Positions 1,288-20,000 of a DNA stretch of 20,000 bases are shown here, one piece after another. Source of the DNA: an uncultured virus (IMG/VR IMGVR_UViG_3300042006_000224) (lineage: Duplodnaviria; Heunggongvirae; Uroviricota; Caudoviricetes; Schitoviridae); IMG/VR virus record IMGVR_UViG_3300042006_000224; one strand, 5' to 3'. The notes beneath the pieces are model-generated. The model saw only the letters and a program-made list of their open reading frames with translations, did not search any database and was not told where the DNA came from. How positions within the stretch are numbered: the first letter of the stretch is position 1; every line of letters starts with the position of its first letter. The position numbers were made by a program, and so were the translations under genes.

Positions 1288-1318
1288 AAAAAAGGGGCCG
1301 ATTGGCTCCTTTCTTTTT
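1288..1318. terminator. Bidirectional intrinsic terminator
   Basis: AAAAAAGGGGCC-GATT-GGCTCCTTTCTTTTT: GC stem with one G-U pair, an A-run before and a T-run after. It lies between convergent genes (adaptor on +, dUTPase operon on -). Confidence 0.85.
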
Positions 1319-1378
1319 GAATAGGTGGCGGGATTACGCTCCCGCCTGTTCGCTCCACTCTTCGCAGTGGCGCAGAAT

Positions 1379-1549
1379 TTAGTTTTGCCGCTTCATGTCG
1401 AGCCACGACAGTTCTTGTTCAAACAACTCTTCTTCTGGCATATCTTCTGGCATCCAGGCATCGCCATGTTGTGCGAGCTTCTCGGTGTTATATACGAGAA
1501 ATTGATCAAGTTCTGCTTTGCGTAGCGCAACATATTCCGTAAGGGTCAC
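1379..1549 (-). CDS. Small acidic hypothetical protein, 56 aa (MTLTEYVALRKAELDQFLVYNTEKLAQHGDAWMPEDMPEEELFEQELSWLDMKRQN); not in ORF track
   Basis: The GTG start overlaps the dUTPase TGA (GTGA, translational coupling). GGGAG RBS lies 9 nt upstream, and the TAA is at 1381-1379. It is followed by hairpins and a terminator. Confidence 0.75.
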   Translation of the reverse strand: MTLTEYVALRKAELDQFLVYNTEKLAQHGDAWMPEDMPEEELFEQELSWLDMKRQN

Positions 1550-1971
1550 TTACCGGTGCTCCCGAAGCCACCCGCACCGCGCGTGCTGGAATGGGTGAAC
1601 TCGCTGACAAATTGCAGCTCTGGTGTCGATACCGGCACAACAACGAACTGAAACAGGCGCTCGCCTGCTGCCCACTGCACATAATCCCCGGAACGTCCTT
1701 GAACGTTCACCTTCCATTCGCCTTCGTAATCGGAATCGATAACGCCACAGGTATTGCCCAGGCGGATACCCGATTTCACGCCTGCACCCGAGCGCGGCAG
1801 AATAAGGGCAACATGTCCGGCCGGAACCTTGGCTGCGAAGCCAAGTCCCTGCAATTCTGCATTACCGCTCACGGATGTACCGGCTTTAGGCATATACAGG
1901 TCATAACCCGCAGCACCTTCCGTTCCGCGAGTTGGTGTGATCAAATCCGGGTGAAGTTTGATGATTTCCAC
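1546..1971 (-). CDS. dut: Trimeric dUTPase, 141 aa
   Basis: All five dUTPase motifs are present: AAGYDL, PRSG, GVIDSDYEGE, GERLFQ, RGAGGFGSTG. Start revised to the GTG at 1971 (AAAGGGA upstream), because the track's longer start overlaps the portal gene. Confidence 0.95.
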   Translation of the reverse strand: MEIIKLHPDLITPTRGTEGAAGYDLYMPKAGTSVSGNAELQGLGFAAKVPAGHVALILPRSGAGVKSGIRLGNTCGVIDSDYEGEWKVNVQGRSGDYVQWAAGERLFQFVVVPVSTPELQFVSEFTHSSTRGAGGFGSTGK

Positions 1972-1977
1972 TATGAT
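1972..1977 (+). promoter_or_regulatory. Candidate -10 element (TATGAT) for a late promoter driving the portal operon
   Basis: TATGAT lies about 20 nt upstream of the AGGAG RBS (1996-2000). There is no convincing -35. A promoter is needed here because a terminator at 1288-1318 closes the upstream + transcript. Confidence 0.3.
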
Positions 1978-2008
1978 GCTTCCCTTTACTGGTTTAGGAG
2001 ATGTGCCA

Positions 2009-4162: not shown

Positions 4163-4180
4163 CGACAATCGGTAATATGC

Positions 4181-4200
4181 GGGACTTCTCACGAAGTCCC
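4181..4200. other. Perfect 8-bp intergenic hairpin (weak terminator, or RNA processing/stability element)
   Basis: GGGACTTC-TCAC-GAAGTCCC lies between the portal stop and the AAGGAG RBS of the next gene. It has no proper U-tract on either strand. Confidence 0.55.
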
Positions 4201-4227
4201 CTCTAATTTCTCCAAGGAGCACCCCAA

Positions 4228-4569
4228 ATGGGCAATGCCGTTAAACAAATCGAAATCACCATCGAACAATGCAAAGAAGTCATTGAACGCGGCAAAGCGC
4301 TCAATCGTTTGCTGGAAAACCCCGATTTCAGTTCGCTTATCATGAAAGGTTACATGGAGCGCGAGTCGCACCGTCTGACCCTGCTGCTGGCCGATCCTTC
4401 CTGCGAAACTCCGCAAGCCCGCGAGAATATCGTGCGTGACCTGTCTGCCATTGCGCAATTGAACGCGCACTTCCGCACTATCCGCACTGCGGCTGAAGTT
4501 GCTCAGCGCACCCTGGTCGAACACGAAGAGTTGCTGCAAGAAGAACTCGTCGCAGACTTGGAGGCTTAA
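4228..4569 (+). CDS. Conserved small helical protein between portal and scaffold (N4 gp58-like), 113 aa
   Basis: AAGGAG RBS. The sequence ALNRLLENPDFSSLIMKGY is of the kind seen in post-portal proteins of N4-like phages. Supported by synteny. Confidence 0.75.
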   Translation: MGNAVKQIEITIEQCKEVIERGKALNRLLENPDFSSLIMKGYMERESHRLTLLLADPSCETPQARENIVRDLSAIAQLNAHFRTIRTAAEVAQRTLVEHEELLQEELVADLEA

Positions 4570-4572
4570 GCC

Positions 4573-5760
4573 ATGTCTTCTGACTTCCTGACGATGTCCG
4601 ATGCTGACTTCATGGCGCAAGGCGCTGGCAAGTTGGCTGAAGTTCAAGCGGCTGCCCAAACCAGCACCCCTGACGCAACTACTCCCGATAACGTGGAGAC
4701 TTCCAATGCCGACGCCACCGCTGCTGCCGAAGCACTTGCCGCTGGAACTGATACTGCTCCCGATACAACTGCTACCCCGGAAACAGACGAAGAAGGCGAA
4801 ACGCAGAACGAAGGGGGCGAGCAGGAAGAAGGCGGCGAACTTGGTGACGGAACTGACGAAACGAATCCGGCGCAGCCAGAACTGGGCGCTGATGGTCAAC
4901 CAGTCACCAAACCAGAAGTAAAGAAGGCAGAAGTCTCCACTTCTGATACTGGTTTGCCGGAAGGCGCTGAACGCATCTTCGCAACCTTCCGTGCGAACGG
5001 TCGCGACATGCAAGTGAAGTCTGTGGACGAAGCAATCCGTCTTATGCAGATGGGTGCCAACTATTCGCAGAAACAGGCTGTTGCCAAGAAAGATCGCGCA
5101 TATGTGAAAGTTCTTGAGCAGAACGGCTTACTTGACCATGAAAAGTTGGCGTTTGCTGTTGACTTGATGGCCGGAAAGCCCGAAGCTATCGGCAAGTTGC
5201 TGAAAGACTCCAAGATTGACGTTCACGACATCGATGATGACAAAGTTGCAGCATACCGCGCAGAATCTCGCGCACCGAGTGCAGCATCTCTGGACCTCGA
5301 CGAAGTTGTAGCAGAAATCGAAGGTACTGCTCACTTCACTCGCCTTGTAGGCGAAATGAAGACTTGGGATCAAAAGTCCCAGGCATTGTTGGGCAGTCAC
5401 CCGCAAGCGCTGAAACAGCTCACTGAGCAGATGGAATCCGGCGTTTACGACAAGATCATGGACGAAGTCAATCGGCAACAGGTATTGGGGGCGATGACAG
5501 GTGTGCCGGTAATGCAGGCATACAACGAGATCGGTCAGAAGATGGCCGAAGCTGGTGCTTTCAACGCCCCGGCTCCGAAGGGTCCAGTAAAGAAGCTGGT
5601 CACTCCGGGCAAAAAGACTTCGCCGGCTACGAAGGCCGATGAGGAACGCCGTCGCGCTGCTGCCCCATCGAAGGGTGCAACGACTGCAACACAAGAAGCG
5701 AAGAAACCTGACTTCCTCTCGATGAGCGATGCAGAGTTCTTGAAGCAATCCAAACCGTAA
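4573..5760 (+). CDS. Probable capsid scaffolding protein (N4 gp57-like, often annotated as tape measure), 395 aa
   Basis: GGAGG RBS within the end of the previous gene. It has an acidic low-complexity N-terminal region, a conserved-looking FRANGRDMQVKSVDEAIRLMQMGANY core and a basic Pro/Ala C-terminal linker. It lies immediately upstream of the major capsid gene. Confidence 0.7.
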   Translation: MSSDFLTMSDADFMAQGAGKLAEVQAAAQTSTPDATTPDNVETSNADATAAAEALAAGTDTAPDTTATPETDEEGETQNEGGEQEEGGELGDGTDETNPAQPELGADGQPVTKPEVKKAEVSTSDTGLPEGAERIFATFRANGRDMQVKSVDEAIRLMQMGANYSQKQAVAKKDRAYVKVLEQNGLLDHEKLAFAVDLMAGKPEAIGKLLKDSKIDVHDIDDDKVAAYRAESRAPSAASLDLDEVVAEIEGTAHFTRLVGEMKTWDQKSQALLGSHPQALKQLTEQMESGVYDKIMDEVNRQQVLGAMTGVPVMQAYNEIGQKMAEAGAFNAPAPKGPVKKLVTPGKKTSPATKADEERRRAAAPSKGATTATQEAKKPDFLSMSDAEFLKQSKP

Positions 5761-5775
5761 TAAGGAAAACCCGCG

Positions 5776-6960
5776 ATGGCAGCTCCAAATACTTACACTC
5801 CGGCTTCGTATAATGCCCCACCGGGCACACCGTCCAGCATCGGCCCACAGGCCTATGAAGAGTATCACCAGAAACAAGCGCTGATCGAAGCGCGTAAGGA
5901 ACAGTTCTTCACCCAACTGGCCGACGTTACCGTCATGCCGAAAAACATGGGCAAGAAGATCACCAAGTTCCACTACATCCCACTGCTCGACGACCGCAAC
6001 GTCAACGACCAGGGTATCGATGCCAACGGCGCAACCATTGCCAACGGCAACCTGTACGGCTCCAGCAAGGACATCGGTGTCATTACCGGTAAGCTGCCAG
6101 CTCTGACCGAACACGGTGGCCGCGTTAACCGCGTTGGTTTCACCCGTATCGAACTGGAAGGCACGCTGGAAAAATTCGGCTTCTACGAAGAATTCACCCA
6201 GGAATCCCTGGACTTCGACAGCGACGCCGAGCTGGACATGCACATCACCCGTGAAATGGTGAACGGCGCTCACCAGATGTCCGAAGCTGCTCTGCAGATC
6301 GACATCCTGAACGCTGCCGGTGTAATTCGTTACGCTGGTGATGCAACCTCCAACGTTACCCTGAACAGCGGCGACGTTGTTACTTACGACGACCTGTTGC
6401 GTCTGGGTATCCAACTGACCAACAACCGTACTCCGCGTACCATTACGCAGATCAACGGTACCCGTCTGACCGACACCCGTACCATTCCGGGCGCACGTCC
6501 ACTGCACTGCGGCTCCGAGTTGATCCCAACTCTGAAAGGCATGAAGGACATGCACAACAACCCTGCATTCATCTCGGTCGAGAAGTATGCGGCTGGCGGT
6601 GAAACCCTGATCGGCGAAATCGGCCAGATCGATGAGTTCCGTATCATCATCGTGCCGGAAATGCTGAAGTGGTCTGGTGGTGGCGCTCTGGTCACCGACG
6701 CGCTGTATCACGACAACGGCACCAACTACGACGTGTTCCCAATGCTCTGCATCGGCGACGGTTCGTTTACCACCATTGGTTTCCAAACCGACGGTAAATC
6801 GGTGAAGTTCAAGATCATCAAGAAGCTTCCGGGCGTTGAAACTGCGGATCGCCTGGACCCGTACGGCGAAATGGGCTTCATGGCCATCAAGTGGTACTAC
6901 GGCTTCATGACTCTGCGTTCCGAGCGCATTGGTCTGATCAAGACCCTTGCCCTGCTGTAA
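5776..6960 (+). CDS. Major capsid protein (N4 gp56 family), 394 aa
   Basis: TAAGGA RBS. N4-gp56-type motifs: YIPLLDDRNVNDQGIDANG, GNLYGSSKDIG, GGRVNRVGFTR, DPYGEMGFMAIKWYYG. Strong codon bias, and followed by a terminator. Confidence 0.95.
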   Translation: MAAPNTYTPASYNAPPGTPSSIGPQAYEEYHQKQALIEARKEQFFTQLADVTVMPKNMGKKITKFHYIPLLDDRNVNDQGIDANGATIANGNLYGSSKDIGVITGKLPALTEHGGRVNRVGFTRIELEGTLEKFGFYEEFTQESLDFDSDAELDMHITREMVNGAHQMSEAALQIDILNAAGVIRYAGDATSNVTLNSGDVVTYDDLLRLGIQLTNNRTPRTITQINGTRLTDTRTIPGARPLHCGSELIPTLKGMKDMHNNPAFISVEKYAAGGETLIGEIGQIDEFRIIIVPEMLKWSGGGALVTDALYHDNGTNYDVFPMLCIGDGSFTTIGFQTDGKSVKFKIIKKLPGVETADRLDPYGEMGFMAIKWYYGFMTLRSERIGLIKTLALL

Positions 6961-6980
6961 CGGCAACTGCAATACCATTT

Positions 6981-7002
6981 GGGGAGCTTCGGCTCCCCTT
7001 TT
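6981..7002 (+). terminator. Intrinsic terminator after the major capsid gene
   Basis: GGGGAGC-TTCG-GCTCCCC-TTTT: 7-bp stem, C(UUCG)G tetraloop and a short U-tract. Confidence 0.9.
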
Positions 7003-7035
7003 GGGTACAACTCGCACCGTTTCCGGAGAAACGCA

Positions 7036-7758
7036 ATGTCTGATGACCAAGCTGTACCTGATGAACTCGAATCTCTCAAAGCCCGAGCTACTAAGCTGGG
7101 GATTACTATTGACGGTCGCTGGGGCGTAGAAAAGCTCCGCGAAGTCGTGAACGCCGCAATCCAAGGTGATAAGCCAGTGACTGAACCAACTACCGCCCCT
7201 GCTCCACAACCGGCTCCAGCTACAGTAGCTGCGCCAGCTCCCGCGGTTAAAGCGGTCGAGCAAGCACCCGCTGTCGTGAAAGAAGCGCCGGTCGAGAACG
7301 AAATCAAATCCCCGGTCGAAGTCACCAAGATGCCTTCGCTGGCTGACGCCATGAAAGAAGTTCCGGTGGATGCTGGCCCGGAAACCGAAGGCCAGAAGAA
7401 GAACCGTCTGCGCCGTGAAGCGATGGCCCTGGTGCGTGTGCGTGTGTCCTGCATGGACCCACAGAAGAAGAACCTCAAGGGCGAATTGCTCTGCGTATCG
7501 AACCGTAACTTCGGTACTGTGCAGCGTTTCATTCCATTCAACCGTGAATGGCACATCGAGAAGGTGCTGTACGACGCGATGATGGAAAAGGAATACATGG
7601 TGTTCGACCGTGAGAAGACCGGCCGTGCTGGCATCGAAGTCGTGACCCCGCGTAACGTCCCGGCGTTCAACATTCAGGTTCTGCCACCACTGACCAAGGG
7701 TGAGCTGAAAGATCTGGCTCAGCGTCAAGCCATGGCCGACGGTACCCGTCAGGAGTAA
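7036..7758 (+). CDS. N4 gp55-like protein (DEV gp76-like), 240 aa; N-terminal helix-extension-helix-like module, Pro/Ala linker, conserved C-terminal domain
   Basis: GGAG at 7025-7028 supports the ATG at 7036; the track start at 6979 runs through the terminator. C-terminal LVRVRVSCMDP...FNIQVLPPLTKGELKDLAQRQ. Supported by synteny. Confidence 0.75.
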   Translation: MSDDQAVPDELESLKARATKLGITIDGRWGVEKLREVVNAAIQGDKPVTEPTTAPAPQPAPATVAAPAPAVKAVEQAPAVVKEAPVENEIKSPVEVTKMPSLADAMKEVPVDAGPETEGQKKNRLRREAMALVRVRVSCMDPQKKNLKGELLCVSNRNFGTVQRFIPFNREWHIEKVLYDAMMEKEYMVFDREKTGRAGIEVVTPRNVPAFNIQVLPPLTKGELKDLAQRQAMADGTRQE

Positions 7759-7764
7759 TAACGT

Positions 7765-8499
7765 ATGGCAGTTACCCCGATTACCCTTGCTGACTTGACT
7801 CAAGCCACAGTTGGGGGTACCGGGGCATTCGATACGCTGATGCGTTCGATGGTCGGTCACCTCGAATTGGAGTTCAATAAAGGACGCCTTCGAGGGGCTG
7901 ACTATGCCAACGTCTACCTGAATGCACTGACCCCGGTATTGCAAAATGCCGTGGTCTTTTTGCTTCAGAAGGACGAAGCGGCGAACAAAGCAGCCTTGGT
8001 CGATGCTCAGGTACGTTTGACCGAAGTTCAGATCCTCTTGGCGGAAGCCGAGCTGGAACGTGAGCTGATCAACAAGGAACTGGTGCAGGCCCAGGTATCC
8101 AAGACCATTGCTGAAACCGTGAACCTCGGCCAACAGTTGTTGAACCTGCGGGCTGAAGAGTGCGTACTTAAATCGCAATACGACATCAACCTGTCGCAGA
8201 ACCTGCAAGTCGTGGCGCAAACCAGTCTGGTTAACCAGAAGGTGGCAACCGAGAAGGCGCAGACCTCCGGTATCGCGATTGAGCCGAATTCGGTGATTGG
8301 TAAGCAGATCACCCTGTATACCGCTCAAGCCAATGGCTTCGACCGGGATGCAGAGCAGAAAGCGGCCAAGGTGATGATCGACTCGTGGAACGTACGGCGA
8401 ACCACGGACGTGGGTACCGTTGCCGACGGAGTCAACCAACTCCACGATGCCAACGTGGGCCGCGCAGTAAATGCGCTCCTTGGTGGCGTAGGGGCTTAA
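7765..8499 (+). CDS. Tail tube / lower collar structural protein (N4 gp54-like, DEV gp75-like), 244 aa
   Basis: AGGAG RBS. N-terminal GTGAFDTLMRS...GADYANVY, a central heptad coiled coil and C-terminal IGKQITLYTAQANGFDRDAEQKAAK. Supported by synteny. Confidence 0.7.
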   Translation: MAVTPITLADLTQATVGGTGAFDTLMRSMVGHLELEFNKGRLRGADYANVYLNALTPVLQNAVVFLLQKDEAANKAALVDAQVRLTEVQILLAEAELERELINKELVQAQVSKTIAETVNLGQQLLNLRAEECVLKSQYDINLSQNLQVVAQTSLVNQKVATEKAQTSGIAIEPNSVIGKQITLYTAQANGFDRDAEQKAAKVMIDSWNVRRTTDVGTVADGVNQLHDANVGRAVNALLGGVGA

Positions 8500-8515
8500 A
8501 CCAGCGTGATAGGAT

Positions 8516-8544
8516 AGGGGAACTTCGGTTCCCCTTTTTCTTTT
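8516..8544 (+). terminator. Intrinsic terminator
   Basis: AGGGGAAC-TTCG-GTTCCCCT-TTTTCTTTT: 8-bp stem, UUCG loop and long U-tract. It directly abuts the GGAG RBS of the next gene. Confidence 0.92.
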
Positions 8545-8554
8545 GGAGCAATTC

Positions 8555-10843
8555 ATGGGGCTTTTCAGCAGCAAGAAGACTTACACGGTCAACGTCACAG
8601 TTAGCCCCGTGTTTGAAGAAGAACAGATCCCCACTAGTGCCCTTAACGGCTTAATCAAGGGGATCATGCAGGAACAGGACATTGTTCCGTCGATGCTCGA
8701 CGAAATCTCCCAGTGCATGGGCATTCGTGCCATGACGGCGCTGCACAACACCCAAATGAAGGGTTATGAGCCAGGCATTCCCTCGGCACAAGTGGCGACC
8801 TACATTCAAGCCAAGGATCAAGTAATCAGCGCGATTGAGGCCAATATCGGCCGACAGATCGATGTTGAGTATTACTACATGGGTCCGCTGAACTCGATGC
8901 ACTTCGGCTGGCAGTATTGCCACGATTCGCTTGGCTACAACGTGGCCACCAACGAACTGACGGTGCTCAGTGCCTCTACTGGTTTCCCGTGCTACCTGTC
9001 GGACATGAAGGCCACGTATCTGCGTGAAGACTTCGACTGGATGATCCAGACCAACGATACCGGAATGCTTGCGCAACTCGGCCCGTCTCCACGTTCTGGT
9101 TTCCGTCCTTCGGCGCCGTACAACATGCTGAGTGGCATAGGCCAGTACGCCCAGCAGCCAGCGTACGAGGTGAGTGACGTTTCGACGGAAGACTACGTGA
9201 CCATCCAATATGAGTTCCAAAACGCCAGCGGCGCCTTTGAGACTCGTGGTATCACTGTCTCCATGGCCTCGCTGGACAACATCGCCGACTTCCACATGTG
9301 CCGCTACAAGGATTCGACCGGCAAGACCGGGTTCTTCACCTATCTGCACGGCTCCGGTACCTATCCATCTATTGATCTGGCTTACGCCCTGGAACACAGC
9401 CCGCTGGGTACGTACTTTCCGTGGGCCTACTTCCGTCACCACGGGCAAGACGCTTACGACATCGAATCAGCTACCAGCATGGGGCAGATGAAGGCTTGGT
9501 GTGAACAACTGGGGGTGAGCTACGATCAACTGTATGACGGGGTGCATGAAGACCCGAATGTGGACGATACAGAGCAAAGTTTGCTGCTGATGGCCATTAA
9601 CCCTGGCCATGAGAACCAAGCGTGCCGGGAATACCTGTTCAAGCATTTCAGCGCGCTACATGCGAACGCATTGCCACAAGTGCAACTAGACCCGTCGCTT
9701 GAGGGCAAACTGAATGCATTCACGTCGTCACCGTCACAAATGCAGCATATCCGCGATAATCGCTTCGCAATGTCCTTCCAGTTCAGCGGTATTTCCAAAC
9801 GCCGCGTTCCCGGGAAGATTGCCAACAAAAATCGCTATAACTCGCACTTCGGCATCCTAAGCCAAGACAGTCAGAACTATCTGACCCAGACGCCTATCGG
9901 TACCGGGGTTGATAACGCTTTTTTGGAGCAACCGGGTTGGATCTATCAATATCAGGTCAATGACTCGGTATACGAAGAGATCATCGTCTACGGGCTGCGG
10001 GTGAACTACCAAGTTCACAGCAAGAAAGGATTTGCGGCGAGCCGGCAGGATAAAGAGCTGCTTATCCCGCTTGACTCGGCAATCGTGCAAACCATGTCGG
10101 TTCCCGCACGAGAGCAGCTATTGTGCCGGTCACTCACCATGATGGTGAACACCGTGATCATCACCAAGTCACCTTGGTATGCGTCGTCGGCCTTCCGCAT
10201 CATCCTGCTCGTGATAGCCGTGGTGATCACCATTCTGTCGGCCGGTTCGGCATGGCAGACCGTTGTTGCTGCCTGGGGGGTAGGTATCGGGGCACTTGCT
10301 GTCGTGATCATAACAACCATCGTGAAAACCATGGTTATCAGCTATGGGATCAAGCTGTTCACCCAAGCGGTAGGCCCGAAGGTGGCATTGATTGTTGCCC
10401 TAGTTGCGGTGATCTACGGCAACACCACAGCCGCAACAGAGGCTTCCGCGACATGGGCAGAGAATCTGGTGCAGATGGGTACGTCTTTGGTAAAGGAAGC
10501 CGGGGAACTGAGCCAGCAACAACTCGCTGCCGGCCTAAAGGATATCGTTGAGGACGCTGAAGCGTTTTCTGCGTGGGCACAAGACCAAATGGACGGCTTA
10601 ACTGATAACATGCTGGCCTTGGGTATGAATCCGGCAATTGTCGGGCTAAATGCCTTCGATGTGGTAAAAATGGGTCCGCGGCTTGTTCTTGGTGAGAATC
10701 CGTCGGATTACTACGCACGAACCGTGCATGCGGGCAATATCGGTACATTGGCGTTCGATATGACAGAATCCTTTGTTGCGATAAAGACTTCGCTGCCAAC
10801 TTTCAATCAAACGCAGGAGAGCTTCAATTATGGCGGGGACTAA
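8555..10843 (+). CDS. Virion structural protein, tail plug-like (N4 gp53-like, DEV gp74-like), 762 aa, with C-terminal hydrophobic segments
   Basis: GGAG at 8545-8548 supports the ATG at 8555 (MGLFSSKK). It lies between the tail tube and the ejection genes. There are three hydrophobic stretches at about 10195-10420. Confidence 0.7.
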   Translation: MGLFSSKKTYTVNVTVSPVFEEEQIPTSALNGLIKGIMQEQDIVPSMLDEISQCMGIRAMTALHNTQMKGYEPGIPSAQVATYIQAKDQVISAIEANIGRQIDVEYYYMGPLNSMHFGWQYCHDSLGYNVATNELTVLSASTGFPCYLSDMKATYLREDFDWMIQTNDTGMLAQLGPSPRSGFRPSAPYNMLSGIGQYAQQPAYEVSDVSTEDYVTIQYEFQNASGAFETRGITVSMASLDNIADFHMCRYKDSTGKTGFFTYLHGSGTYPSIDLAYALEHSPLGTYFPWAYFRHHGQDAYDIESATSMGQMKAWCEQLGVSYDQLYDGVHEDPNVDDTEQSLLLMAINPGHENQACREYLFKHFSALHANALPQVQLDPSLEGKLNAFTSSPSQMQHIRDNRFAMSFQFSGISKRRVPGKIANKNRYNSHFGILSQDSQNYLTQTPIGTGVDNAFLEQPGWIYQYQVNDSVYEEIIVYGLRVNYQVHSKKGFAASRQDKELLIPLDSAIVQTMSVPAREQLLCRSLTMMVNTVIITKSPWYASSAFRIILLVIAVVITILSAGSAWQTVVAAWGVGIGALAVVIITTIVKTMVISYGIKLFTQAVGPKVALIVALVAVIYGNTTAATEASATWAENLVQMGTSLVKEAGELSQQQLAAGLKDIVEDAEAFSAWAQDQMDGLTDNMLALGMNPAIVGLNAFDVVKMGPRLVLGENPSDYYARTVHAGNIGTLAFDMTESFVAIKTSLPTFNQTQESFNYGGD

Positions 10844-11294
10844 CTTCTTGCCCTTCGATTTCGACCTTAGCGGTATCTTCGGGGGCACAACTGGCGGCGA
10901 CAACGGCACGGGGCTGGTTAACTTTCCTGGCTTCGGTGGTGGCGGTTCTGCTGGCGCACCTACGGCCAATGGCGGGGGCGGTTTGTTCAGCAACCTGTTC
11001 AACCGCCAATCCCTGTTCGGCGGTACCGACATGAACACCGGTATCTCGACTGGCGGTTGGGCACCGGTAGCATTAGGCGCTGGGCAGGCCATCTTTGGCG
11101 CACTGCAAGGCAACAAGGCGACGAAGCTGGCTGAAGACCAGTTCAAGGAAGGCCGTCGCCAATTCGACCTGAACTTCAACGCTCAGCGTCAAACTATCAA
11201 CTCGCAACTGGAAGATCGCCAGCGTGCACGCGTTGCGTCGAACCCGACGGCATACGAGAACACTGACGACTACCTGCGTAAGAATCGGGTGTAA
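10830..11294 (+). CDS. Small ejection protein (N4 gp52-like, DEV gp73-like outer-membrane channel), 154 aa
   Basis: AGGAG RBS at 10815-10819 and a 14-nt overlap with the upstream gene. Gly/Phe-rich N-terminus, amphipathic WAPVALGAGQAIFGALQG and a C-terminal helix (NSQLEDRQRARVASNP). No Cys. Confidence 0.8.
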   Translation: MAGTNFLPFDFDLSGIFGGTTGGDNGTGLVNFPGFGGGGSAGAPTANGGGGLFSNLFNRQSLFGGTDMNTGISTGGWAPVALGAGQAIFGALQGNKATKLAEDQFKEGRRQFDLNFNAQRQTINSQLEDRQRARVASNPTAYENTDDYLRKNRV

Positions 11295-11296
11295 CC

Positions 11297-12574
11297 ATGG
11301 CCGAGCCGATCACATGGCGTAACGTTGGCAGCGGAGGTGGGGGTAACCCCGCCGCTTTGCTGGCGATGGGGCAGAATCAGGTGCAGCAGGGTCTTTCGGC
11401 CCTGGGCAGCTTGTTCCGCGATGAACAGAAACTTCAGATCCGCAATTCGGCGCAAGTTCGGGAGAACAACACGTCTCAGTACCTTGATGCCGTGGCAAAC
11501 GCCGGAGGCATTGATGCACTACAAAACCCTGAGACTCGTGCTCAACTCGAAGGTATGCGCGCAGGTTTCGGCGCTGCAATCGACCGAGACGCTACTCGCG
11601 GTGCAATTGACAACCGGGTTAAGGGACTCCAACAGCAAGCCTTGGTGGAGAATCAGTTCACGGATCAGGCGACGGAACGCCAGCAACGTGGGCTGGTAGA
11701 TAAAGGTTTGGAGCTGGCCCAAGCCGGGGATATGCAGGGCGTGCAAAAATTGCTCGCTGACACGCAGTTCTTGGACGAAGGCAAGGTCGCCACCAACCTC
11801 ATGGGGATCTTGGATGCCAAGACCCGCCGTCAGTACGCTGCCGAGGACCAACAGCGTCAGGATCGCTCTGAGAGCCGTCAGATCGCACAATTCCAAGAGA
11901 GCATGGCTGCTGCCTCGGAAAACCGCCAAATGCGCAAGGAAGCGATGGCGGATTCGCGCCAAGAGCGTGCTTTCCGTAATGGTGCTCGCGTTCTGGATGA
12001 TGCTGCGGAGCAAGCCAAAGGAATCCTGAATACCCGGCTGGCGGGCAACGAATGGGCCAATGTTTCGACTGACCCAGGCAAGGACGCTGCAGTTCTGCTG
12101 AAAGGCCTGACTGAGAACGGCAACTTCACGTCGTTCCTCAATTCGGACAAGACGGACATCCGTCAGATGCAGGAAGGCGTAACTGAGCTGTTGGCAACCG
12201 GTGTTGAAGCCGACGGGCAGACCTACAAGGTTCCGCCTGCCTTGCTGCAACAAGTCATCAATCAGAACAGCAAAAACTGGAATATCCTCGATAACCCGAT
12301 GGATAGCATCCGTAATGATCTGCGCAATAGCCTATCGGGTAATGCAGGTGCAGGAAACCGTGCAAAAGTGCGTGAAGCGCAGGAAGTACGGGATCGTGCG
12401 AACAATGTGATGCAAACCCTTAAACGGGCGAAAACGCAGCTTGGGTCTAGCTCTACGCTCGATACTTCTGGTATTGTGCAGGCACTCGCTGAGTTGGCAG
12501 GAAAAGCACCGGTCAACTCGTCGGAGCGTGGCCCAAACCTCCTGCCTGACGCAGACGAGGATTCTACTTACTGA
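11297..12574 (+). CDS. Ejection protein (N4 gp51-like, DEV gp72-like periplasmic tunnel), 425 aa
   Basis: Starts MAEPITWRNV. Ala/Gln-rich, probably all-helical, with no Cys. It lies directly upstream of the vRNAP. Confidence 0.8.
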   Translation: MAEPITWRNVGSGGGGNPAALLAMGQNQVQQGLSALGSLFRDEQKLQIRNSAQVRENNTSQYLDAVANAGGIDALQNPETRAQLEGMRAGFGAAIDRDATRGAIDNRVKGLQQQALVENQFTDQATERQQRGLVDKGLELAQAGDMQGVQKLLADTQFLDEGKVATNLMGILDAKTRRQYAAEDQQRQDRSESRQIAQFQESMAAASENRQMRKEAMADSRQERAFRNGARVLDDAAEQAKGILNTRLAGNEWANVSTDPGKDAAVLLKGLTENGNFTSFLNSDKTDIRQMQEGVTELLATGVEADGQTYKVPPALLQQVINQNSKNWNILDNPMDSIRNDLRNSLSGNAGAGNRAKVREAQEVRDRANNVMQTLKRAKTQLGSSSTLDTSGIVQALAELAGKAPVNSSERGPNLLPDADEDSTY

Positions 12575-12589: not shown

Positions 12590-15500
12590 ATGGCAAACGG
12601 CAACGAGAACAACGGTTTCGACCAACTGTTCCCTGCCGGCCTGCCTGCCGCACAGACAGGGGGCTTTCGCCCCCTTTTTGACACCGCTGCGAAAGCAGAA
12701 CAGGTTGCGGCAGCTTCTGAAGACAAGAAGCAGTCTCTTATCGACAAGATGGGTTACGACTACGACGATACCATTGGAATGGGCCTGAACCTCGGCGCCT
12801 CCCTTGTGTCTGGTGCCAGCCGCTTGGCTGGTAACCTCGCAACTCTGCCGGTCGATTTGATCTCTGGTTTGGCCCAAGGCTCTGTACCTGAAGAACAGGT
12901 ACAGGCATACAACCGTGTGCAAACTGGTCAGGCATCTGATGCTGATCGCGCATTGTTGGAACAAGTTGCACCGTTTGAAGACGGTGTGCCGCAAACGTAT
13001 CTGGAACGCTTGCAAGGCACCCAGGGTTTGCAAGAAGTCGGGCAAAACATTTCCGACTTCTTCGATATCTCCAGCATTGTCGAACAAACCAACCGTGAAC
13101 GCCTCAGCCGCGACATTAAGGAAGAAACTGCCGGTGGTGTTGCCGATTTGCGCCGTGCTTCGGATGAATTCGAAGACGGCAAGTATCTCGACGCGCTGGT
13201 TACTGGTGTTGGTGGTTTGGCTTCGACTGTGGGCAATGCGCTCGCAGCCGGTGCATCGAGCCCCCTGGCCACGACTGAATACGTGGTAGAGAACGTTCCT
13301 CAACTGCTGGCTGCGGCCTACAGTGCCCCTTCTATGGTGGCTTCGAACGCCGGTTACGGTTTCGACGCTTACCGTGAAGGTGTGCGCGAGTTCTTCGACA
13401 AGAACGAAGGCCAACTGCCAAACGCTGAACAGCGTGCGGAAATGGGTCTGTTCGCTGCCTCTGCGGCACTGGCTGAACAAGTCGGTGATGCAACCATGCT
13501 TCGTGGTTTCCGTAACGCCGGTACCGGTTCCGCTTCCAAGGCAATGGCCTCGGCTGCGGGTATCGGCGGTGCAATGACCCGTGAAGGCGTTACTGAAGGC
13601 TATCAGACCTACGCGGAAGCGCGGGCCAAGCTGGAAGACCCATCATTGGAAGAGATCGTCGAAGGCGCCACTATTGGTGCACTTGTCGGTGGTAATTTCC
13701 AAGGTGCTGTAGAACTGGCGAAAGCCGGTGCTCCAACAGAAGATGCTGGCACTCGTGCTGCATCCGCTGAAGCTTTTACCGCTGCTGTTGAATCCGGTGA
13801 TGTTTCACCCCTGACTGATGCAGAATCCGCCACTTATAATCCGGTTCGTGCTGTTGAAGCGCTGCACCAGATGAACTTGGCAGAAGGCGCTGATGTCAAG
13901 GCAAACCTCGCTCAAGTTGACCAAATTCAGCAAGATGTGACGGCTGACGTGTCGGCTCTGCAAGCCCGTCTGGAAAACACTTCCCCGGAAGCTGTGGCCC
14001 GGATCGGTTCGATCGTTTCTCAGCTTGAGGCCGCTGGTGCAGACCAAGCCCAAATCGCCGAGATGCGTGAGATCCATGAGGCTGTGGCGAGCTACACCCC
14101 AGAACAACGGAAAGCTGATGAGGCTCGCCTTGCTCAACTGGAAGCCCAGTTGGGTGGCATTCATAAAGCAGCCGAGCGCATGCGCGTAGACGCCAGCCCT
14201 GAGCCGGCTGAAGTCGAAAGCATCGCTACTGAAGCACAGGCAGGTGATGTACAGGCGGCTGACCGTCTGTTGACCCTGACCATGACCAACCCTGATTCCG
14301 TGGACACCCAGGTCGCTGATGCTCTTGCACAGAGCGAAGCCCTGTCAGAGCCGCAACGTATCGCCATGCGCCTTTTCAGCGAGGCTCAGGTGGCAACCAA
14401 CGCCCTGAAAGGCCTTACTGGCGTACGTTCGGACATTGCCACTGGTGGCGACGGTTTCAAAGGTATCTCGCAATATCGCAATGCAATCCGTATGGCCCTG
14501 GCCAATGGCAACGAAGGTGCAGCCCGCTCGCAAGTCGATGGCATCCGCGCATTCGCAGCCAGCCGAGAGTCGAAACTGAACGCCATCACCGCTGCCTTCG
14601 AGCAAGTGAAGGGCACAGACAATTCGATCAATCTCGTGCGGAATCAGCAAGGTGAATGGGGTCCGACTGATCTGAAGGGCAAAGCCCTGAAGAAAGCCGG
14701 TGGTGTGGAAGTCTCGGCACGTTCTTTCAAGCTGCGCGACGGTGTAGCTGCGGAAGCTGACGCTTTGACCAAGACTGCTGCTGCATTCGAAGCTCTGGTA
14801 AATGCTGCTCCCACTCCTGTTTCGGCGCCGGTTGTGCAACCGACGGCTGAGGTACAGGGTGACGTTACCCCGGCAACTCCTGAAGCTGCTGCCACGCCTG
14901 CTGTTGAACCTGCACCGGTAGCTCCGGTAGCAGACGAAACACTTGCGTCCGCGGCGCCTGACGAAGCTGCGATCACCCCAGAAGATGCCCCGAGCGTGAC
15001 CGATGAGGCGCAGGCGAATGCCGGCCAACTCACCACAATCGGCGAGCGAACTGGTGCGGCGGTAACTGCCGACAACTACCGTTCTATCAATCTGGTTTCC
15101 GAGCTGTTTGAACAACAGGCCGGCAACGAGACTGATGCAAGCGTTCGCCCGCTGGTAGCTGTCAAAGACTTCGCTTCGGCCATCCAGGCTGGCGAAGTGC
15201 AGGCCAAGGACTTCATTGATCAAGAAGGTGACCTGACTGGCCCGCAAACCCAAGCCCTGAACGCTTTCTTTAACTTCGCGCAATACTCTGCGCAAGCGAT
15301 CCGCGACCAGTTTAAGGTGACTGAAACTCGTGCCAAACGCCCGGACTTCTTCTATCGGGATATGGCACAGTTCCTTCAGAACGCGGATGGGCAAATTGAT
15401 GAGAACTTGGCGACTGCTGTCTCGTACGGCATGTTCTCCTGGGCCAACGAAAACGCAACTCAACTGCGTAATTCTGACGAGGGTATCAACGCTATTCTGT

Positions 15501-18500
15501 TGAGAGAGTTCGATTCTGAAATCTCGTCTGCTGCCTACAAAGAACTGTCGCTGATCGGTACGCGTGAAGCCGTGGTTGCCTCGCAACTCGGTGGGCGTAT
15601 CGTTCAAGCGATGGGTCTGCGACCAAACCAGCAAGGTACCAATGCCGAGCTGAGCAAACTGGAAGCCTCTATCGGTACCCGCGCTATCGCCGCCATGGTG
15701 AAGCTGGGCATCGTCGAGCGGGTCCAATTGTCTGATGTGAAACTTCAGGCCCTGATGAATTCTGGCGAGCCGGGTAACGCCCGCATGAACCACACTTTCG
15801 TCCGGGTTAAATCGGCCGAAGTGAATGGCAAGCGCGAGCCAGCCCCTATCGTCAAACGTATCCGTGAACGCAACGTCAGCTCGCAGTCGGTGGTTGCCAA
15901 ACTGATGTCAGTTGAAGCGGCCGGTGTTGAACCGAGCTACACCCCGGTGAAGTTCGACCAGGCATTCGCCAAGCGCACTGGTCAAGCCGTCCCGAAAGGG
16001 CTGGCCGAGACACAGAATAAGGAAGGCGCCAAGGCTCACGTTGTTCGTCAGAACATGTGGCATGTCTGGGGCCGACTGAGCAAGCAGGCGCTGTACGCAA
16101 TGGGTGGTGTGGTGTCCACGTCCGATGCCCCGACTCACGTCGAGAATCTGGCTTCCCGCCAAGCGAAGAACGACGGGCTGATTCAGCAAGTCGAGAACTT
16201 CGACACCTTTATCAAGGCCATGGCTGCCGATTCGAGCACTGAAGGTCTGGAACAGCCGCTGTACTTCGGCCGTTCGGTCTGGAAGCCTCAGCGTGTTGGT
16301 TTGACCACCAACGTGGTGAATCCACAGACTTCGAAGATCCACCGTCACATGTTGGCCATGCAAGGTTGGAATGCGTCCGTCGAACTAGCTGATGCTGCGT
16401 CGATGAACAACTTCAAGCTGCGTGTGCTGGAAGCGTTCGGCAAGAAGACTGAAGCGACCAATACCCCTGTTGTGCTGGCCGGTTACGACGCTGTCGTGTC
16501 GAATCCTGCAATTCAGGCGGGTATTGATGCGTTGGTCGACGTGCTGCGTGATGTCGGCACTACCAACGAAGAAGCTATCGTTGCTGCGGTAAAAGCCGGC
16601 GGTGAGAACTTCCATTCGTTCGATGCACTGGTTGCCTTGGCTGAACAGCGTATTGCTGAGCAGGACGGCAAGCCTTCGTTCGAAACGAGCATGATGGGTG
16701 AGGTTGACGGTGTCACCAACGGGCCGATGCTGTCCCTGCTGATGCTGGGTGCCAAAGGCTTCGAAACCATGAACCAAGGTGGGTTCTTCGAGCTGGAAAG
16801 CCCGTACTCGCAGTTCAATGACTTCCACGCGGTGGATGGCAACCTCGATCTGTATGAGTCGAACATTGCCGGTGCGTTGAACCGTCTGCAAGGCCGCAAC
16901 GTCAACATGCTGCAAGCCATGCAGGTAATCACCGGCCAGTTGCAAACTGTCGAGGGTAACGTGACCTCCAAGGGTCGGAACATCATCAAGAAGCCCCTGA
17001 CTGCACTGATGTTCGGGTCCAACCCGAAAACAGCAGTAGAAGGTATGGCTGATGGTTTCGTTGAAGCGATTTACAGCCGTATCGAAGATGCTGCTGCGAA
17101 CCGTGACAATGCGGCAATTACTGCACTGTTCTCCGCGGTCAATACCCTGATGCGTCTGCCAAAGGCTGCATTGCCAGCAAACGCCGGCTATGAGCAGGCA
17201 CTGGAAACCAAGCTGACTGAACAGCAGAAAACTGCGCTGAAGAAGTCGTTCTATGAGCTGTTGGGTAAGCCAACCGAAGATGCCCTGGCTGACAACTACG
17301 CGACCTTCATTGCACGGCGTAACGTGATCAACCAGACCGCACAGCTGTCGTTTGACCTGTTCAACGCGGTTCGCGAAGGCGTCACCGAGTTCGTTGAAGG
17401 TTCGAGCGCAGAAGTGGCACGCAACAATGCTGGTGAGGCGATTCGCACCCTGACCAAAGAGCAACTGACACAAGTCGATGCTCTGATGGGTGATATGGCG
17501 CCGATCCTGCAAACTGCCATGTCTCAGGCGGCAGGTCAGCGTGAAGCGGGCATGTACATGGCGAAGTCGCAGCGTAAGCTGGATTCCTCGCTGCCGTATG
17601 AGCAAGAAGTTGCTTTCGGTGACATGGTCAACACAATCGCACCAGATGGCCAGATGATGGGCATTGGTTCGTCGAAAGTGTCGTCTACTCGCACCGAAGA
17701 CATCGACCCGGGCGTAATGCCGTTCATTACCTCGATTCACTCTTCCGACTCCGCGATTGCCTCGGCCGTCTACGGTGAAATGGAAGCGCTCAACGTTCAC
17801 GACGCCTTGGGTGTCGATCTGAACAATGTGGCGAAAGTGGGGCAGGAACTGAACAAAGCTACCTTCGAAACCCTGCTGAACTATTCGTCGCCGACCGCCA
17901 TGTCCAACATGTTGGATGAAGTGCTGGCCGGTGTCGCTAAAGCGATGCAGAACCCCGAATTGGCCGCTCGCATCCAGCCAAAGCTGCGCGAGAAGATGAT
18001 TCAGCGTGCCGAGAAGAAGCGCGGCGGTATTGCGCAACAACTGACCGCTATCCGTGAAACTGCCCGTCAGGCAGACACTGATAAGCTGTCGATGATGGCT
18101 GAGCTCAAGGCAATCGGTCAATACGCCACTGAAGGTGGTTCGTACGTGGTAACCGACGCTGATCGCGAAGCTGCAGCCAAGAAACTGGCTGAGGTGGGCA
18201 CTTCGTTCAACGAAGGCGCTGAATCCGTGGCTGAAATGCTGGACGTTGCGGCTGCTGTCGATCCTGCTGTGTATCAGCCGGGTCAACGCGCTGTGCTGGC
18301 CAACACTTCGGTGACTACGCTGGCGCCGGCTACTTCCCTCAATACCCTGGCTTCGCTTGAGCAAACCAACGCAGTTGAGCAGGTCATTGCTTCCATGGTT
18401 TCGGGTAACCGGACTCTGGGCGATGCTGTGCAGATTCTGCCTGAGCATCAAGCCGCCGATGTGATCAACGCGGTAAACACTGCGTCTGAAGAGGAGCTGT

Positions 18501-20000
18501 CGGTATGGGGCCAGTTGGGTACCCCTGTGGTGCAATCTGACACCAATCTGGTAGAGCTGCTGTCCGGTAACATCCTGTCGGCGCACAACCTGATTGATTC
18601 ACTGGTTGCCTACAGCCAAGACCCGTTCCAGCGCACTGTGCTGCAAATGGCCAAGAAAGGTATCCCTGCTGGCGTGCGTGTGAACTACATCACCGCCGAG
18701 ACTGGTCCTGAAGGTGCATTCGGTGAAGGTGTGGACAAATCCCGTGGTTGGTACGCACAGCGTAACGGCACCGAAGCATTGTTCATCAAATCGCCTGAAT
18801 TCGTTGAATCGGGTATCACTCCGGAGCTGTTGACCCACGAACTGGTACACGCTGCCCTGGCCAACTTGGTTGATCAGCATGATGGTGCCAATACGATCGC
18901 CGGTCGTGCAGTGGCTGATCTGGAAAGCCTGCGGCAGATCGCTGACGAGCTCATCGCCAACAATGGTGAGATGTCGGCACGATTCCGCAATGCCACGTCC
19001 AACGTGCATGAGTTGCTGGCCTGGGGCCTGACCAACAAGGCATTCCAGCGCGATGTGTTGTCCCAAGTCCAAGTAGAGCAGCGTAACCGCAGCTTCCTCG
19101 ACGGCCTGAAGACTTTCATCGGCAAGCTGACCACTCTGCTGTTCGGCGACAATAAAGTGTCGGCAAACAACGGTATGGCCAACTTGGTGGCGAATGCTGC
19201 CGGTCTGTTCCAAGAAGCCGCCGCTGTACGCGATGCCCGTGCCACCAAGACGCACAAGTACGAAGATGCGGTCGATCACATCAATGCCATGACGGCCGAG
19301 CAAGTGTTTGACGCACTGGCTTCGGTATCTGGTGTGCAAACGGATGTTCGCCACGTTGAGTACCTGAAGAACCTGCTGGCTGAGACAGTTGACCCGGTCT
19401 ATGGCCCTTACGGTGCATTCAAGGAACAAGCTGCGGCAAACCGTGCGCTGACGCCAATGGATGTGTTCCTGAAGGCTGTGAACACCGGCAAGCTGCCATT
19501 CAGTTCGGAAGCAACGGCCAATGCCTTTATCCTGTCGCAACAGGAAGCATTTGTACTGGAATCGGTCGAAGCCACCGTGGCCTTTGCCATGGAGCACAAA
19601 GACACGCTGTTCGTGCGCCAAGCGCTGGAAGATTTGTTCAAGGAAGCACGAGCGACCCTGAACAAAGATGGCCGCAACTTCCACAAGGGAATCTGGGCTA
19701 CCGCAAGCCAGAATGAGAAGGATATCGCCAAAGCGAAATGGGACTTCGTGTTCCGTCCGCAAGCGGGCATCACTGGCAAGAATGCCTACCTGTCACGCTT
19801 TGCAGCGTTGGGTCTGGCCTCGGCTGAAGTTCGCAACGTGTTGGCGTTCTCGACGGCGAATCTGGAAACCCCGCTGAAGGAACTGCCGTGGGCCAGCCGC
19901 CTGACCGAGCTGTTCCGTCGTCTGATGCAACGCCTGTCCTCGTTGATGACCAAGGTCACCCCGGGCATGGCGGGCAATCAGGCACTGCGTACCCTGGTCG
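12590..20000 (+). CDS. Virion-encapsidated RNA polymerase (N4 gp50-like vRNAP), at least 2470 aa, 3' truncated; absent from ORF track because no stop codon falls in the window
   Basis: AAGGGG RBS and ATG at 12590. Manual translation of this frame gives no stop through 19999. T7-superfamily motifs: A GEVDGVTNGP (16697-16726), B RNIIKKPLTALMFGS (16976-17020), IHSSDS (17735-17752) and C LNVHDA (17789-17806). No Cys codons were seen. Confidence 0.97.
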   Translation, partial: MANGNENNGFDQLFPAGLPAAQTGGFRPLFDTAAKAEQVAAASEDKKQSLIDKMGYDYDDTIGMGLNLGASLVSGASRLAGNLATLPVDLISGLAQGSVPEEQVQAYNRVQTGQASDADRALLEQVAPFEDGVPQTYLERLQGTQGLQEVGQNISDFFDISSIVEQTNRERLSRDIKEETAGGVADLRRASDEFEDGKYLDALVTGVGGLASTVGNALAAGASSPLATTEYVVENVPQLLAAAYSAPSMVASNAGYGFDAYREGVREFFDKNEGQLPNAEQRAEMGLFAASAALAEQVGDATMLRGFRNAGTGSASKAMASAAGIGGAMTREGVTEGYQTYAEARAKLEDPSLEEIVEGATIGALVGGNFQGAVELAKAGAPTEDAGTRAASAEAFTAAVESGDVSPLTDAESATYNPVRAVEALHQMNLAEGADVKANLAQVDQIQQDVTADVSALQARLENTSPEAVARIGSIVSQLEAAGADQAQIAEMREIHEAVASYTPEQRKADEARLAQLEAQLGGIHKAAERMRVDASPEPAEVESIATEAQAGDVQAADRLLTLTMTNPDSVDTQVADALAQSEALSEPQRIAMRLFSEAQVATNALKGLTGVRSDIATGGDGFKGISQYRNAIRMALANGNEGAARSQVDGIRAFAASRESKLNAITAAFEQVKGTDNSINLVRNQQGEWGPTDLKGKALKKAGGVEVSARSFKLRDGVAAEADALTKTAAAFEALVNAAPTPVSAPVVQPTAEVQGDVTPATPEAAATPAVEPAPVAPVADETLASAAPDEAAITPEDAPSVTDEAQANAGQLTTIGERTGAAVTADNYRSINLVSELFEQQAGNETDASVRPLVAVKDFASAIQAGEVQAKDFIDQEGDLTGPQTQALNAFFNFAQYSAQAIRDQFKVTETRAKRPDFFYRDMAQFLQNADGQIDENLATAVSYGMFSWANENATQLRNSDEGINAILLREFDSEISSAAYKELSLIGTREAVVASQLGGRIVQAMGLRPNQQGTNAELSKLEASIGTRAIAAMVKLGIVERVQLSDVKLQALMNSGEPGNARMNHTFVRVKSAEVNGKREPAPIVKRIRERNVSSQSVVAKLMSVEAAGVEPSYTPVKFDQAFAKRTGQAVPKGLAETQNKEGAKAHVVRQNMWHVWGRLSKQALYAMGGVVSTSDAPTHVENLASRQAKNDGLIQQVENFDTFIKAMAADSSTEGLEQPLYFGRSVWKPQRVGLTTNVVNPQTSKIHRHMLAMQGWNASVELADAASMNNFKLRVLEAFGKKTEATNTPVVLAGYDAVVSNPAIQAGIDALVDVLRDVGTTNEEAIVAAVKAGGENFHSFDALVALAEQRIAEQDGKPSFETSMMGEVDGVTNGPMLSLLMLGAKGFETMNQGGFFELESPYSQFNDFHAVDGNLDLYESNIAGALNRLQGRNVNMLQAMQVITGQLQTVEGNVTSKGRNIIKKPLTALMFGSNPKTAVEGMADGFVEAIYSRIEDAAANRDNAAITALFSAVNTLMRLPKAALPANAGYEQALETKLTEQQKTALKKSFYELLGKPTEDALADNYATFIARRNVINQTAQLSFDLFNAVREGVTEFVEGSSAEVARNNAGEAIRTLTKEQLTQVDALMGDMAPILQTAMSQAAGQREAGMYMAKSQRKLDSSLPYEQEVAFGDMVNTIAPDGQMMGIGSSKVSSTRTEDIDPGVMPFITSIHSSDSAIASAVYGEMEALNVHDALGVDLNNVAKVGQELNKATFETLLNYSSPTAMSNMLDEVLAGVAKAMQNPELAARIQPKLREKMIQRAEKKRGGIAQQLTAIRETARQADTDKLSMMAELKAIGQYATEGGSYVVTDADREAAAKKLAEVGTSFNEGAESVAEMLDVAAAVDPAVYQPGQRAVLANTSVTTLAPATSLNTLASLEQTNAVEQVIASMVSGNRTLGDAVQILPEHQAADVINAVNTASEEELSVWGQLGTPVVQSDTNLVELLSGNILSAHNLIDSLVAYSQDPFQRTVLQMAKKGIPAGVRVNYITAETGPEGAFGEGVDKSRGWYAQRNGTEALFIKSPEFVESGITPELLTHELVHAALANLVDQHDGANTIAGRAVADLESLRQIADELIANNGEMSARFRNATSNVHELLAWGLTNKAFQRDVLSQVQVEQRNRSFLDGLKTFIGKLTTLLFGDNKVSANNGMANLVANAAGLFQEAAAVRDARATKTHKYEDAVDHINAMTAEQVFDALASVSGVQTDVRHVEYLKNLLAETVDPVYGPYGAFKEQAAANRALTPMDVFLKAVNTGKLPFSSEATANAFILSQQEAFVLESVEATVAFAMEHKDTLFVRQALEDLFKEARATLNKDGRNFHKGIWATASQNEKDIAKAKWDFVFRPQAGITGKNAYLSRFAALGLASAEVRNVLAFSTANLETPLKELPWASRLTELFRRLMQRLSSLMTKVTPGMAGNQALRTLV
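12658..12679 (+). terminator. Intrinsic-terminator-like hairpin inside the 5' end of the vRNAP gene
   Basis: AGGGGGC-TTTC-GCCCCCT-TTTT: 7-bp GC-rich stem plus T-run, at about codons 23-30 of the vRNAP. Confidence 0.65.

Follow-up and report, generated by a model that had tools for sequence, protein, structure and literature searches.

The window analysed here, a stretch of 20,000 nucleotides from an uncultured virus of the Schitoviridae (IMG/VR record IMGVR_UViG_3300042006_000224), carries the gene of an N4 gp50-like virion RNA polymerase (vRNAP) in which the aromatic residue of motif B is phenylalanine (F1475) instead of the tyrosine found in the RNA polymerases (RNAPs) of phages N4 and T7. 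We find that this Phe is not peculiar to the phage of the window (the query) but is typical of its lineage, and that across a large clade of vRNAPs it occurs almost exclusively together with a palm histidine (H1717 in the query) equivalent to H784 of T7 RNAP, the second residue known to set selectivity for 2'-substituents. The reading that we favour is that the gene encodes a working RNA polymerase whose ribose check would lean on this His, with a selectivity probably below that of N4 but not lost; that the Phe is no recent mutation but an ancient state which a large clade has inherited and retained under selection; and that, by analogy with N4, the enzyme would be a single-subunit polymerase packaged in the virion and injected by an uncultured N4-like phage (Schitoviridae) with a Pseudomonas-type host. 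Taken jointly, we give this reading a probability of roughly 0.55. Its interest lies in the Phe/His pattern and not in the Phe alone. The features on which the argument depends are given below, with residues numbered in the query protein and column counts taken from a MAFFT alignment of 186 vRNAP polymerase domains (rows).

12590..19999, + strand: virion RNA polymerase gene, N4 gp50-like, 2470 codons with the 3' end cut by the window (from the open reading frame list and translation)
15137..18439, + strand: polymerase domain, residues 850-1950, equivalent of N4 mini-vRNAP (from an AlphaFold2 model, Foldseek and the family profile)
16292..16294, + strand: R1235, the Arg of the T/DxxGR motif (N4 R424, T7 R425); R in 185 of 186 rows
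16706..16723, + strand: motif A, from the catalytic D1373 (N4 D559, T7 D537) to G1378 (T7 G542); D in 186 of 186 rows
16976..17020, + strand: motif B (O helix) with R1463, K1467, F1475 and G1476; reads RNIIKKPLTALMFGS
17012..17014, + strand: F1475 codon TTC, at the position of N4 Y678 and T7 Y639
17738..17749, + strand: H1717-S-S-D1720, equivalent of T7 H784-S-Q-D787, with G-T-G-D in N4 (from BLASTP of palm segments)
17798..17803, + strand: motif C, H1737-D1738 (T7 H811-D812, N4 F950-D951); D in 186 of 186 rows

On the DNA and in translation, the codons at 16976-17020 (cgg aac atc atc aag aag ccc ctg act gca ctg atg ttc ggg tcc) give motif B with R1463, K1467 and F1475 as the earlier note on this DNA had read it, and the pattern R-x3-K-x7-[YF]-G has a single match in the whole 2470-amino-acid protein, at the R1463-S1477 stretch. 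The residue numbers that the note gave for the reference enzymes are correct on the fetched sequences. T7 RNAP (NC_001604) has R627, K631 and Y639 in RSVTKRSVMTLAYGS, while N4 gp50 (NC_008720) has R1663, K1667 and Y1675 in RGIAKNPLTITIYGS, which with an offset of 997 are R666, K670 and Y678 of mini-vRNAP, the same residues as given in passages of Zhao et al. 2009 (PMC2784036); the numbering of N4 R424, D559 and D951 was also confirmed on NC_008720. F1475, N4 Y678 and T7 Y639 fall in a single column of the 186-domain alignment, in agreement with the equivalence that the note had proposed for them. When the family profile was compared with T7 by hhalign, a single weak match was obtained (E=0.099), which places motif B on T7 626-642.

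The remaining catalytic residues are in place. The motif B Arg and Lys and both catalytic aspartates are present in all 186 rows, so that D1373 (codon GAC, 16706-16708) and D1738 (codon GAC, 17801-17803), which had been claimed to be intact, share their columns with N4 D559 and D951. Motif A reads EVDGVTNGP in the query, EADGVTNGP in N4 and AFDGSCSGI in T7, and G1378 (domain position G529) is invariant in both of our alignments, A1 and the smaller A2. Around the Arg of the T/DxxGR motif the local strings are KPQRVGL in the query, MTRVGRM in N4 and MDWRGRV in T7. The residue preceding the motif C Asp is His in 167 of the 186 domains, Phe in 18 and Tyr in 1; the query and T7 have HD and the N4 side of the family FD, which makes N4 atypical at motif C too.

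In the AlphaFold2 model of the domain, a helix spans domain residues 611-625 (1460-1474) and F1475 (domain residue 626) lies directly past its C-terminal end. A different Tyr at the O-helix position can be set aside, since Y1495 is the sole Tyr within residues 1450-1510. The query thus departs from the canonical Rx3Kx7YG: where the O helix ends on its C-terminal side, at 1475, the Tyr that bonds the 2'-OH is replaced by Phe. A separate observation concerns the Gly that follows the aromatic residue. Some Tyr-type vRNAPs lack it, with Y-S in Humphriesvirinae, Efbeekayvirus cp20 and Pantoea G19 and Y-N in Vibrio phage D499, and the published 'YG' motif is therefore not universal.

To place F1475 within the family, we compared motif B across several samples. 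Among 120 listed near homologues of the core region, it reads FG in 119 and YG in one. A set clustered at 50% identity comprised 845 proteins at E<=0.001, the best 150 of which served as representatives; F was found in 134 of these and Y in 15, and P0186 gave no BLAST alignment but has F by pattern. This sample leans toward the query side of the family, because it holds the best 150 of 845 and because the HMMER bias filter removes N4-type proteins. The first impression it gave, that Phe is the norm of the entire vRNAP family, was overturned by 27 named phages from approximately 20 genera or subfamilies. LUZ7 (Migulavirinae) is the one phage with Phe in this sample; the other 26, N4 included, have Tyr, covering Enquatrovirinae (N4, St11Ph5, KP8), Rothmandenesvirinae, Humphriesvirinae, Fuhrmanvirinae, Pontosvirinae, Pacinivirus, Cbunavirus, Efbeekayvirus, Presleyvirus, Demetervirinae, Cavevirus, Rhodovirinae, Riverridervirus, Huelvavirus and several unclassified phages. 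A search seeded with N4 added little diversity, all 120 listed relatives (74-100% identity) having Tyr. Phe was found in phCDa, Littlefix, KPP21 and YH30.

These states were mapped on a FastTree phylogeny of the 186 domains (the query, the 150 representatives, 8 further close relatives and the 27 named phages), from which the trait column was removed and 1073 columns were kept. Other close relatives and all N4-near proteins were omitted as redundant, and phCDa, LIT1 and PEV2 are also absent. The column of position 1475 holds F in 145 rows, Y in 41 and nothing else; since 145 of the 186 sampled members have Phe, Tyr does not define the vRNAP family. One clade of 160 rows (support 99), which includes the query and LUZ7, contains all 145 Phe rows together with 15 Tyr rows, and every one of the 26 remaining rows has Tyr. 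The Phe is not special to the query phage; it is the normal state of this clade and has been in print since 2010. In Ceyssens et al. 2010 (PMC3715699), the legend to Suppl. Fig. S2 gives motif B as Rx3Kx7YG and reports 'Y678F' for LUZ7, LIT1 and PEV2; with the LUZ7 sequence itself, this settles in the affirmative whether LUZ7/LIT1-like phages share the Phe, which the note had left undecided. Full-text literature searching found no further discussion of motif B Y678F in vRNAPs beyond that paper, and the residue is not mentioned in the passages searched of a 2015 review, a 2024 DEV paper and a 2026 N4 cryo-electron microscopy paper.

The F/Y label requires at least 12 changes on the 186-row tree, 9 of them forced by well-supported branches (at least 11 and 8, respectively, on an earlier tree of 174 rows). 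Tyr is present in T7 and, according to passages of PMC4538805, at the motif B position of Syn5 RNAP, and the basal branches of the Phe clade are exclusively Phe. The simplest history is therefore that Tyr gave way to Phe once, in the ancestor of the clade, and returned many times thereafter, as read from a single FastTree topology with a midpoint root and without an outgroup.

The TTC codon itself is not a sequencing slip. Metagenome contigs from 4 runs (one of them possibly the window's own source) span the site with 0 differences at 17012-17014, all reading TTC where the earlier note had allowed for TAC. Within the motif and beside it, the strain variants among these contigs, from 3 further runs, differ only at 16975, 16978, 16996 and 17020, all of them synonymous changes at third codon positions, which indicates purifying selection at the motif. 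The same MFG is found in all 23 listed relatives at >=77% identity (P0002-P0024), and the frame is open across 2470 codons with all catalytic residues present. A TAC misread as TTC by sequencing or assembly, or a decaying gene, is ruled out at the contig level by these runs; we found nothing in support of either and give them next to no probability. Rhizosphere metagenome runs from several studies carry the 16700-17300 stretch of the window or near variants of it. Most of the differences among these variants are at third codon positions, which suggests that rhizosphere samples hold several circulating strains of this phage lineage.

The second residue of the pattern lies in the palm. BLASTP of the palm segments of the query and T7 (E=0.028) matches H1717 to H784 and H1737-D1738 to H811-D812, the strings being SIH1717SSD1720S...NVH1737D1738 in the query, FVH784SQD787G...LIH811D812 in T7 and TIGTGDG...KIFD in N4. 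Within the 145 Phe rows, the H1717 column is His in 143 and Gln in 2 (P0150 and P0195, for which the alignment was checked). Across all 41 Tyr rows it is H in 10, Q in 15, G in 11, S in 3, L in 1 and A in 1, so that 31 are non-His; the 15 Tyr rows inside the Phe clade have His in 7, Gln in 7 and Leu in 1, and the 26 outside it have Gly in 11, Gln in 8, His in 3, Ser in 3 and Ala in 1. T7 and a few vRNAPs thus combine the two residues; the N4 side has only the Tyr and the Phe clade only the His, and loss of both is almost never seen. A set of IMG/VR loci, which comprises 80 of 175 confirmed relatives and overlaps in part in lineage with the 186 rows, has Phe with His in 62 loci, Phe with non-His in 0, Tyr with His in 10 and Tyr with Gln in 5, with 3 incomplete.

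Parsimony places 9 His losses inside the Phe clade, 7 of them on branches ending in Tyr. Such branches make up 10.6% of the total branch length, giving an approximate binomial P of ~4e-6 that rests on the parsimony mapping, one FastTree topology and a midpoint root. For 5 of the 7 losses on Tyr-state branches, the mapping assigns Tyr to the parent node as well. The His column was picked on purpose, after the fact, from what is known of T7 H784. A general scan for columns changing together with F-to-Y in 11 sister pairs, which are very divergent (path lengths 0.8-2.1), yielded no convincing partner and did not single out the His column; its best column, 1729, changes G to A in 7 of the 11 pairs, yet has Ala in 17% of F rows and 24% of Y rows. 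Overall, the Phe/His pattern agrees with a function that the two residues share and for which at least one of them would have to be retained. A single full-text query found no publication that combines vRNAP with H784.

What this function may be is suggested by work on T7. Passages of PMC4551944 name R425, G542, Y639 and H784 as the residues proximal to the incoming nucleotide, and describe the Y639 hydroxyl as bonding the 2'-OH of the incoming nucleoside triphosphate (NTP), a mutant bearing H784S as accepting 2'-fluoro NTPs with Y639 intact, and Y639F/H784A as the most permissive T7 combination. The query equivalents of the four are R1235, G1378, F1475 and H1717. That Y639F relaxes sugar discrimination in T7, as the note states, agrees with passages of PMC6535458 and PMC4538805, the latter also describing substantial remaining discrimination against some analogues. 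We infer that in the Phe clade the ribose check would no longer rest on the aromatic hydroxyl and would rest largely on the conserved H1717, whose part may lie in checking either the sugar or the primer terminus. Discrimination against deoxyribonucleoside triphosphates (dNTPs) and 2'-modified NTPs would then probably be weaker than in wild-type N4 without being abolished, and the remaining selectivity may suffice in cells, where ribonucleoside triphosphates (rNTPs) far exceed dNTPs. The earlier note had posed two options, relaxed selectivity or selection of rNTPs by different residues. This was the right question, and the covariation of His would favour selection partly by other residues.

An N4 mini-vRNAP with Y678F reportedly behaves like T7 Y639F. 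Conclusions from that mutant should not be transferred to Phe-type enzymes, because N4, the only vRNAP studied biochemically, is unusual at two of the four positions next to the nucleotide, with Tyr and Gly against the Phe and His of a large and mostly uncultured clade. For N4, virion packaging of the vRNAP, its injection and its transcription of early genes from hairpin promoters on single-stranded DNA are documented. That a Phe-type vRNAP works as an RNA polymerase is consistent with passages of PMC9163698 on LUZ7, in which primary early transcripts start from N4-like hairpin promoters and are attributed to the vRNAP.

Several points weigh against a ribose check that leans on His. Besides the dependence of the binomial value on one mapping and one root, an independent-pairs test of the coupling is not significant (median p 0.0625); of its 9 usable pairs, a mean of 4.6 change in the same direction, 0.1 in the opposite direction and 4.3 show no difference. 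His is also retained in 7 of the 15 Tyr revertants inside the clade, and Gln occurs in the two Phe rows named above. One could accordingly suppose that Y and F are equivalent in this clade, that the hydroxyl has no role there and that the association with His is a by-product of shared ancestry. The at least 9-12 switches between F and Y on the tree would fit such a toggle, as would the single nucleotide that separates Phe from Tyr codons (TTY/TAY) and the failure of the pairs test to reach 0.05. We regard it as very improbable, given that under random pairing only 0.1 of 9 pairs on average run in the opposite direction, that the His losses concentrate on Tyr-state branches, that the IMG/VR set repeats the pattern, and that the two columns are exactly the two T7 residues known for sugar selectivity from passages of PMC4551944.

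According to passages of PMC6535458, T7 Y639F, which has Phe and His, takes dNTPs as efficiently as rNTPs; since this T7 genotype is already strongly relaxed, His may not rescue much. Passages of PMC4551944 further describe H784 as contacting the minor groove of the hybrid and not the incoming ribose, so that the coupling could concern fidelity or extension and not sugar choice. The literature searched yielded no biochemical assay of any Phe-type vRNAP. The main rival to the His-based check corresponds to the first option of the earlier note. It holds that loss of the hydroxyl leaves little sugar discrimination and is tolerated in cells, whose rNTP pools greatly exceed those of dNTPs. T7 Y639F and Syn5 Y564F do lower discrimination (passages of PMC4538805 and PMC6535458), and the query has the T7 Y639F genotype at all four nucleotide-proximal positions. 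Set against this, Phe is kept across a deep clade under purifying selection, and loss of His accompanies it in just 2 of 145 rows and in 0 of 62 loci, which suggests that selection still acts on a joint role of the two residues. We consider such a relaxed enzyme unlikely, if the most serious of the alternatives; were it correct, the enzyme would lend itself readily to in vitro synthesis of 2'-modified or mixed RNA/DNA products.

The opposite extreme is an enzyme in which H1717 or other residues replace the Tyr hydroxyl completely and selectivity equals that of N4. His is near-obligatory with Phe, and the repeated F-to-Y reversions occur with no other consistent change, which suggests that in this background either aromatic residue serves almost equally well. 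The same His in T7 does not compensate Y639F, however (passages of PMC6535458), and the general covariation scan disclosed no further partner residue, which makes full compensation rather improbable in our judgment. An intermediate selectivity, with the check leaning on His, is the reading that we retain.

A broader and more tentative proposal is that the Tyr hydroxyl and the palm His (Y639 and H784 in T7) form an either-or pair in single-subunit RNAPs, of which selection keeps at least one, and that Phe+His vRNAPs are natural enzymes of intermediate sugar selectivity. We regard this as possible, with the odds against it. If the either-or pair were real, a single change of the His would yield a very permissive polymerase, and if in addition the hairpin promoters on single-stranded DNA were used as by N4, these enzymes would be a source of 2'-modified RNA from single-stranded DNA templates. 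Phe+His vRNAPs may in any case be natural acceptors of 2'-modified NTPs, and the natural coupling of the Y639 and H784 equivalents offers a cheap and direct handle on how two residues share sugar selection.

The gene product is a Schitoviridae vRNAP (N4 gp50-like) by sequence, motifs, fold, size and gene position, as the earlier note had it. The open reading frame at 12590..19999 matches phrog_2206 'virion RNA polymerase' over residues 42-2469 (E=0, 1407.5 bits); the Pfam family PF21894 N4_RNAP_helical scores 22.9 bits, under its cut-off of 27. The closest full-length relative (P0002, 3384 amino acids) is 97.7% identical position for position across the 2470 shared residues, and close relatives are 3380-3384 amino acids in full length. 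The AlphaFold2 model of residues 850-1950, built from alignment A2, has a pLDDT of 88.2 and a pTM of 0.86, and its ten best Foldseek matches in the PDB are all N4 vRNAP chains (E 3e-32 to 6e-27, TMq 0.66-0.70), led by mini-vRNAP 3c3l_B (E=3.3e-32, TMq 0.70) and followed by T7 and mitochondrial RNAPs. The family profile also finds N4 vRNAP chains in the PDB, at E=1e-166 for the full-length protein and ~4e-41 for mini-vRNAP (3c2p/3q0a/2po4).

A single-sequence search of the PDB with the vRNAP gave no match, for which the HMMER bias filter is responsible; it also discards N4 gp50 when queried with this vRNAP domain, and single-sequence HMMER searches therefore split the vRNAP family artificially and hide its N4 side. 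There is no Cys in the 2470 residues of the query vRNAP, in P0002 (3384 amino acids) or in N4 gp50 (3500 amino acids), in agreement with a published remark that vRNAPs contain none.

Upstream of the vRNAP gene and on the same strand lies a structural module with the terminase large subunit, portal, major head protein and N4-type virion proteins.

1..12574 of the window, + strand: N4-type structural module with terminase large subunit (cut at the window start), virion protein, portal and head protein
1958..4162, + strand: portal
5776..6960, + strand: major head protein
8543..10843, + strand: conserved protein of unknown function, 766 amino acids, one of several

The nearest named relative of the query is Pseudomonas phage phCDa (Shizishanvirus, Schitoviridae), with 78.6% nucleotide identity over 98% of a 2.5-kb query and 83.4% amino acid identity over 501 residues of the vRNAP. 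Its motif B is identical (RNIIKKPLTALMFGS) and its palm has the same HSSDS...HD; the query is a distinct phage, of a lineage from rhizosphere metagenomes. LUZ7, LIT1 and PEV2 (Migulavirinae), Littlefix, KPP21 and YH30 share the Phe-type motif B (LUZ7 RKVIKQPLTAMMFGS; P0052, P0077 and P0078), and LUZ7 shares the His at the H784 equivalent. LUZ7, Littlefix, KPP21 and YH30 belong to the same 160-row clade as the query. These six phages differ from it in being ~47-53% identical in the 501-amino-acid core and infect P. aeruginosa or other pseudomonads. One record listed among the LIT1-like P. aeruginosa phages (PP852687.1, 47% identity) is labelled Photobacterium phage TEMp-D1, a host label that looks odd.

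N4 gp50 and mini-vRNAP (PDB 2PO4, 3C2P, 3C3L, 3Q0A) resemble the query in family, fold, the four motifs and the lack of Cys, and the gp50 gene is likewise placed after structural genes. N4 differs in having Tyr (Y678) at F1475, Gly at H1717 and Phe at H1737, and identity is only ~15% by Foldseek or 26% over 188 residues by tblastn. T7 Y639F and Syn5 Y564F share with the query the Tyr-to-Phe change at this O-helix position, and the query keeps the residues that correspond to T7 R425, G542 and H784. Those two are laboratory mutants of promoter-specific enzymes that transcribe double-stranded DNA, whereas the Phe of the query is a natural and ancient state in a relative of N4 vRNAP, an enzyme that uses hairpin promoters on single-stranded DNA.

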